The notes beneath the pieces were generated by a model, which was given only the letters and a program-made list of their open reading frames with translations, did not search any database and was not told the origin of the DNA. Below, one piece after another: positions 26,110 through 26,520 of a stretch of DNA of 64,000 nucleotides. The stretch comes from Escherichia coli (GTDB lineage Bacteria > Pseudomonadota > Gammaproteobacteria > Enterobacterales > Enterobacteriaceae). The first letter of the stretch is position 1. The number at the start of each line of letters is the position of its first letter. The translations under genes and the position numbers were made by a program. The stretch is taken from the NCBI RefSeq assembly GCF_041248615.1, contig NZ_CP158426.1. One strand, given 5' to 3'.

Positions 26110-26520
26110 GTTGTTTGTTTTCCCTTGAAGTCCTTAACGACAAATATCGTTATAAAAAAATGCCAAGCGACACGAGACTAATTACCTGGGCATGTTGAAA
26201 CAATTCCTTAAGGCCAAATCTGTGGACTAACGCACAAAATTATATGCTGTGAGGATAATCTACCGCCGAGGCAAAACGAGTTCGAGATTACCCGATTGGT
26301 GCGGTCTTGGCGAGCGGTTTTACATGATTTTTTATAAGAAAAAGTGATACAGAAAGTTAATAAGCGGGATTGGTCAATTAAAGTACGATTGAGTGAAACG
26401 CATGCAATCCATTCATTTACTTAGAGAATGATTTTTGCGCGCGATGGATGAAAGCACGGTGCGCATCATCAGGATTATCCTCACTATAAAAATAACCCTG
26501 ATGATGTTAATTACTGTGAG

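Follow-up and report, generated by a model that had tools for sequence, protein, structure and literature searches.

A 64,000-nt stretch of Escherichia coli DNA, here called the window, carries yeiR, lpxT and mepS on its minus strand, and just past the lpxT stop codon it holds a short inverted repeat. What is this repeat: a transcription terminator, a binding site for a regulator, a promoter, or an RNA element at the end of the lpxT message? An earlier note on this DNA had placed it directly past lpxT, in a spacer of about 410 bp that also contains the mepS promoter. This context is correct; the spacer measures 411 nt, and the mapped mepS starts (26278 and 26169) both lie within it. Across 5420 complete E. 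coli genomes the spacer is 98-100% identical, and RefSeq names the flanking genes lpxT and mepS. Compared with K-12 MG1655, the spacer of the window differs at few positions and at none within the hairpin described below; on this K-12-identical hairpin sequence rests the conversion used throughout, K-12 coordinate = 2269567 + (26521 - window coordinate). The features under discussion are collected in Table 1.

Table 1. Features of the yeiR-lpxT-mepS region, in window coordinates and in the order in which the minus strand is transcribed
Feature	Position	Strand	Remarks
yeiR	28259..27273	minus	
lpxT	27234..26521	minus	
lpxT stop codon (TAA)	26521..26523	minus	14 nt upstream of the hairpin
lpxT-mepS spacer	between lpxT and mepS		411 nt
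Conserved AAUUAAC motif	26507..26514	minus	just 5' of the hairpin
Candidate promoter	TTAACA 26510..26505; TATAGT 26488..26483	minus	16-nt spacer; from a scan
Hairpin 5' arm	26487..26506	minus	sense CAUCAUCAGGGUUAUUUUUA; outer 10 nt: repeat of the earlier note
Hairpin loop UAG	26484..26486	minus	3 nt; from the fold
Hairpin 3' arm	26464..26483	minus	sense UGAGGAUAAUCCUGAUGAUG
Term-seq RNA 3' end	26461	minus	K-12 2269627; 3 nt past the last stem pair
C>G stretch downstream of the hairpin	26281..26460	minus	C/G 1.5-3.0 in 80-nt windows
mepS transcription start P1	26278	minus	K-12 2269810; SMRT-Cappable-seq
mepS 5' UTR segment	26249..26260	minus	+19..+30 from P1; sense GAUUAUCCUCAC
Second mepS start	26169	minus	K-12 2269919; SMRT-Cappable-seq
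mepS	26109..25543	minus	

The 10-bp repeat with its 23-nt gap stands as the earlier note described it; the position given there, 26466-26508, is shifted by +2. CATCATCAGG is found at 26464-26473 and CCTGATGATG at 26497-26506, and at the DNA level the arms reach 15 nt with 93% complementarity and one mismatch (26464-26478 and 26492-26506). Perfect inverted repeats of at least 10 bp with a gap of 3-40 nt occur at 13 loci in the 64-kb window, versus 2.35 ± 1.6 in dinucleotide shuffles; because such repeats are common here, the bare 10-mer is not compelling by itself. The case for a hairpin rests on the extended stem, the position 14 nt past the lpxT stop and the conservation. In the sense (minus-strand) RNA the element folds as CAUCAUCAGGGUUAUUUUUA-UAG-UGAGGAUAAUCCUGAUGAUG, a 43-nt hairpin with a 3-nt loop and a continuous 20-bp stem that includes four G·U pairs. 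The centroid structure has -24.8 kcal/mol (z = -5.03), a value reached by 0 of 200 shuffles. Five of the 20 pairs are G-C, the inner half of the stem being rich in AU and G·U pairs. The plus-strand (antisense) RNA forms a shorter, weaker and interrupted stem, with a best single hairpin of -16.2 kcal/mol versus -23.7 kcal/mol for the sense strand, an asymmetry of 7.5 kcal/mol in E. coli.

Several observations concern variation within the stem and its surroundings. Position 26496, the 11th nucleotide of the 5' arm in sense orientation and opposite a U, is G in the window and in K-12, where it makes a G·U pair; it is U in O157 and BH100, C in strain 20A24 and A in E. albertii, so the stem tolerates a 1x1 mismatch there. 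E. coli 20A24 (NZ_CP147044.1) carries an IS1A inserted within the 3' arm, at the equivalent of about 26473 in the window, so that, judged from this one strain, the hairpin is dispensable. The spacer of E. coli isolate MIN12 is matched only by half, in two places. The 3' arm also contains an AUGAUG at which an 18-codon open reading frame (MMRTVLSSIARKNHSLSK) starts, with GAGGA 8 nt upstream of the AUG. It was rejected as a gene, since a 1-nt indel puts it out of frame in another species of Escherichia (locus L004, MMRAVAFIHQTQKSFPK) and E. coli strains show non-synonymous differences in it.

The comparison across the family covered 80 loci from Enterobacteriaceae genomes, one per species, retrieved with MepS as bait. 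In 79 of them lpxT lies upstream of mepS, the remaining one, a Pluralibacter MAG, having a truncated remnant, and the spacer is 401-441 nt long in all. A stable hairpin shortly past the lpxT stop is present in about 77 of the 80 species; in about 75 it is homologous and at the same place, with a nearly invariant spacing of some 400 nt to the mepS ATG (locus positions 2596-2603). The common core in most genera is a near-perfect palindrome, CAUCAGGGAUCG-UUUU-CGAUCCCUGAUG. Citrobacter has the version CAUCAUCAGGGAUACUUCUGAUUCCCUGAUGAUG, and the four Escherichia sequences retain the outer CAUCAUCAGG/CCUGAUGAUG around a longer, fast-changing interior.

The 58 recognisable homologues were aligned with MAFFT on sequence only, with no structure fitting. 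The aligned segments had been cut around predicted hairpins, which somewhat favours pairing; with this caveat, 81% of cells at the 15 shared pairs are paired, a share that drops to 28-46% after sliding the 3' partner by 1-3 columns, both-sided (compensatory) changes occur in 14 of the 15 pairs, and the covariation score is 0.304 versus at most 0.10 in the slid controls. None of 500 shuffles reached the observed values. Conservation across enterobacteria, which the earlier note had proposed to check, is thus found, in the form of a hairpin kept with compensatory changes. A covariance model built from the alignment detects one site per locus and none other in 586 kb; its single match in the window is at 26462-26509 on the minus strand, with 30 bits.

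The strand on which the hairpin acts can be approached through the same species. With hairpins picked independently for each strand, the sense RNA folds better in 50 species and the antisense RNA in 27 (Wilcoxon p = 0.014, the species not being independent). At paired columns, G·U combinations do not significantly outnumber A·C ones among the species (38 vs 37 overall, and 30 vs 20 for the inner stem). The strand evidence is good in E. coli and only suggestive family-wide.

Known classes of elements were also considered. An E-value search of Rfam over 25400-27400 returned chance-level matches only and never reached a gathering score; the best match over the hairpin, MIR172, scored 15.7 bits (E = 6), the gathering score being 70. 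A dispersed repeat was rejected: 5425 of 5426 E. coli genomes carry one copy of the element, with nothing annotated there, the 80 loci and the window contain no further occurrence of the core motif, and the covariance model finds only the lpxT site. REP and BIME elements are likewise intergenic palindromes, able to stabilise the upstream mRNA against 3' exonucleases; they are, however, defined by many copies sharing a consensus, whereas the lpxT element has a single copy without the REP consensus, an AT-rich interior, and orthologues at one and the same locus in different genera.

The earlier note had also suggested a protein-binding palindrome, that is, a DNA site for a dimeric regulator of mepS or lpxT. 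In favour of such an operator are the conservation of the core in its very sequence (ATCAGGGATCG-N4-CGATCCCTGAT, at least 90% in nine alignment columns) and the nearly constant distance to the mepS ATG in about 75 species. The half-sites give a mixed picture: the core is conserved in many genera, but in others (Salmonella, Klebsiella, Kluyvera) unrelated half-sites substitute for it with the pairing kept. The inner 10 "pairs" of the E. coli element hold up only in RNA, where G·U is allowed, and the DNA palindrome is imperfect at the G·U positions. The closest mapped mepS start is about 185 nt downstream of the site. We know of no regulator or motif for this palindrome sequence. The protein-binding suggestion gains no support from these data, and we regard an operator as very improbable.

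Whether the hairpin is a terminator depends first on what follows the stem. The 8 nt past it in sense orientation (CGCACCGU) contain one U, where a canonical intrinsic terminator has about five or more, and a consensus terminator scan makes no call; the opposite-strand tail, UUAAUUAC, has U at four of eight positions. With the sense U-tract absent, the judgement of the earlier note that this is not a classic intrinsic terminator holds. The other part of the canonical structure, a stable stem-loop on the sense transcript shortly past the stop codon, is present, and the tail is different elsewhere in the family. In 20 of the 80 species, among them Klebsiella, Kluyvera, Atlantibacter and Cedecea, the stem at this position is followed by at least five U within 8 nt. 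In Buttiauxella and Siccibacter the U run starts inside the stem, and Buttiauxella combines a recognisable core with A- and U-tracts (AAAACAUCGGGGAUCC..GGAUGCCCGAUGUUUUUU). At most two U follow the stem in 34 species, among them all Escherichia and most Citrobacter. A terminator would be expected to have such a U-rich tail in its ancestral or alternative form, and this distribution of tails leads us to infer an ordinary lpxT terminator as the ancestor, from which the E. coli form would have arisen by loss of the U-tract.

Published transcript maps bear directly on the site. Term-seq recorded a 3' end at K-12 2269627 (+) with a read score of 1323 (Adams 2021, PMC7815308, Supplementary file 1), and the sequence printed for this end is the lpxT hairpin. 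The end was classed as "orphan" because it lies 60 nt past the stop, over the 50-nt limit of the "primary" class, and of the three condition blocks only the first, LB at OD600 ~0.4 by file order, contains it (PMC7815308). The 3'-end mapping proposed in the earlier note thus places an end at stem +3, in one of three conditions and with low reads. Conservation and a mapped 3' end, on which the note had let its repeat stand or fall, are both present.

The SMRT-Cappable-seq units (Yan 2018, PMC6131387) comprise yeiR-lpxT (b2173|b2174) with a start at 2267795, lpxT (b2174) with a start at 2268825, and mepS (b2175) with starts at 2269810 and 2269919 and an end at 2270620. None of the units in this data set spans both lpxT and mepS, and there is no start inside the hairpin or near 2269612 (PMC6131387). 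The separate units imply that lpxT transcripts stop within the spacer and that mepS is transcribed from promoters of its own. The Cappable-seq supplements list nothing for the site in either coordinate system, the RNase III target paper does not mention lpxT, and the literature on lpxT with ProQ, Hfq or RIL-seq yielded nothing specific.

These maps also weigh on the candidate sigma-70 promoter that overlies the hairpin and from which a long mepS leader or a non-coding RNA would begin near 26476. It matches 10 of 12 consensus positions, and its -35-like AATTAACA is conserved across genera. The region, however, holds one such site versus 2.5 expected by chance; the -10 element falls in the Escherichia-specific interior of the hairpin and is not conserved, and the only mepS starts in SMRT-Cappable-seq are the two given above, none being near 2269612. 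The chance that this promoter is real appears slight.

We consider it probable, at about 0.7, that the repeat is a terminator-derived stem-loop which defines and protects the 3' end of the yeiR-lpxT and lpxT transcripts. Of the alternatives in the earlier note, the "RNA stability element" is thereby favoured, on account of the 3' end at stem +3, the compensatory changes and the better pairing of the sense strand. The element would descend from an intrinsic terminator at the same position across the Enterobacteriaceae; in the Escherichia and Citrobacter lineages the U-tract would have been lost and the stem kept, and in Escherichia the stem would have been lengthened. Sense transcription would then produce the 43-nt hairpin 14 nt past the lpxT stop, and the steady-state lpxT mRNA would end 3 nt beyond it, the hairpin forming a barrier to 3'-to-5' exonucleases (PNPase, RNase II) that fixes and protects the end of the message. 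It would also keep lpxT transcription apart from that of mepS, whose promoters lie about 185 and 295 nt further on. The polymerase would be released downstream, probably by Rho acting on a C-rich, G-poor stretch or through weak hairpin-driven termination, and the RNA would then be trimmed back to the stem. Several points count against this reading: the few reads of the 3' end and its listing in one condition of three, the lack of a listed Rho-termination region, the modest strand asymmetry and non-significant G·U excess across species, the dispensability of the hairpin in the strain with IS1A, and a core sequence more conserved than a generic stem requires.

Rho is taken here by default as the factor that would release the polymerase at lpxT. 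Over some 180 nt past the hairpin C/G is 1.5-3.0, versus a strand background of 1.08, a composition compatible with Rho loading. No Rho-termination region is listed for K-12 2269000-2270199, nor for coordinates beginning with 22700 or 22701, in a search whose power may be low owing to the weak expression of lpxT (Adams 2021 Supplementary file 2, PMC7815308).

A published class of 3' ends offers the closest comparison. Dar & Sorek 2018 (PMC6061677) described, for Rho-dependent transcripts, stable stems without U-rich tails, with 3' ends immediately after them and C exceeding G downstream, in which termination occurs further downstream and PNPase and RNase II trim the RNA back to the stem. The lpxT element shares with this class the stable stem-loop lacking a U-tail past the stop codon, the 3' end directly after the stem and the excess of C over G downstream. 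It differs in that Rho dependence and exonuclease trimming are what we infer for lpxT, with no Rho region in Adams 2021. Its stem is also unusually long (20 bp) with an inner half rich in AU and G·U pairs, and the hairpin clearly descends from one that is U-tailed in other genera.

The main rival is hairpin-driven release without a U-tract. The hairpin would then be a working Rho-independent terminator that frees the polymerase at or just past the stem, and +3 would be the true termination point. This agrees with the very high stability of the stem, with the U-tailed homologous hairpins at the same site in other genera, with the sharpness of a 3' end that adjoins the stem, and with the lack of a reported Rho region at lpxT. 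Intrinsic 3' ends, however, usually lie 7-9 nt past the stem, within the U-tract. The E. coli element departs from a canonical intrinsic terminator in having its end at +3 and not at +7 to +9, one U in 8 nt with no call by the consensus scan, and five G-C pairs out of 20. The TERMITe supplements hold no entry for the site, which is weak evidence given that their text is possibly incomplete. On balance we think such a terminator unlikely, and retain the reading of a protective 3'-end hairpin.

A further use of the hairpin was considered for E. coli alone. Twelve nucleotides of its 3' arm (26473-26484, GUGAGGAUAAUC) perfectly complement a segment of the mepS 5' UTR (26249-26260, GAUUAUCCUCAC). 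In E. coli proper the interior of the old terminator hairpin might thus have been remodelled so that the 3' arm could pair with the mepS P1 leader, either within a read-through RNA or, as a stable fragment from the 3' end of lpxT, in trans; if true, expression of the MepS peptidoglycan endopeptidase would be tied to transcription of the lipid A phosphotransferase gene lpxT. A match of such length has P = 0.001 in composition-preserving shuffles, and RNAfold, applied to the 371-nt read-through RNA, favours the long-range helix over the local hairpin in both the minimum-energy and the centroid structure. The match was, however, picked post hoc among eight listed repeat pairs, and the complement exists only in E. 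coli proper, other Escherichia having at most 7 nt although the distal segment is conserved. The arm would moreover be locked in a -24 kcal/mol hairpin formed first, some 210 nt earlier in transcription, and no lpxT-mepS transcript has been reported. The complement is probably coincidental, and we give the regulatory pairing very little credence.

The comparison brought up other features of the spacer and of mepS. The lpxT-mepS spacer (26110-26520 and related loci) is nearly free of indels across the family and contains blocks that are 90-100% conserved, for example 26340-26325, 26312-26306, 26235-26228 and 26160-26110; these blocks include both mapped mepS start regions. In the Pluralibacter MAG, where lpxT is a C-terminal remnant directly after yeiR, mepS is still preceded, at the usual distance, by a weakened hairpin (CAGGGAUAG-UUUU-CUGUUCCUG). 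In 42 of the 80 Enterobacteriaceae spacers a direct repeat resembling a Pho box, (C)TGTCAT-N4-(C)TGTCA(T/C), occupies a fixed position at -337 to -345 from the mepS ATG (loci L010 and L008, at about -339, are examples). It is absent from all Escherichia, where only a CTTTCAT remnant is seen (window ~26432-26449); the block AAATGAAnGnATTGCATG downstream of it is conserved in E. coli too (26400-26418). The repeat may represent a PhoB-dependent upstream mepS promoter in other genera.

Within the mepS ORF, at 25944-26001, CATCCTGAGA and TCTCAGGATG form a perfect inverted repeat of 10 bp whose arms are 38 nt apart. Its 3' arm contains a strong Term-seq 3' end internal to the ORF, at window 25952 (K-12 2270136), with 10-13k reads in two conditions (PMC7815308). 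Other Term-seq 3' ends, at 26113-26115 (K-12 2269973/2269975), were found in all three conditions and scored as not Rho-dependent (PMC7815308). Lying 4-6 nt before the mepS start codon, they may reflect RNA processing or premature termination in the mepS leader.

The lpxT hairpin is an unannotated but ordinary transcript-end hairpin, and it leaves the understanding of lpxT or mepS biology unchanged. With it the yeiR-lpxT operon would gain a defined 3' boundary, and the separate transcription of mepS would be explained. For the Enterobacteriaceae it would provide a clean, datable case of a terminator hairpin whose stem was kept for hundreds of millions of years as its U-tract was gained or lost by lineage. 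It would thereby offer a natural series for the function of a U-less hairpin, be it pausing, protection from exonucleases or helping Rho.
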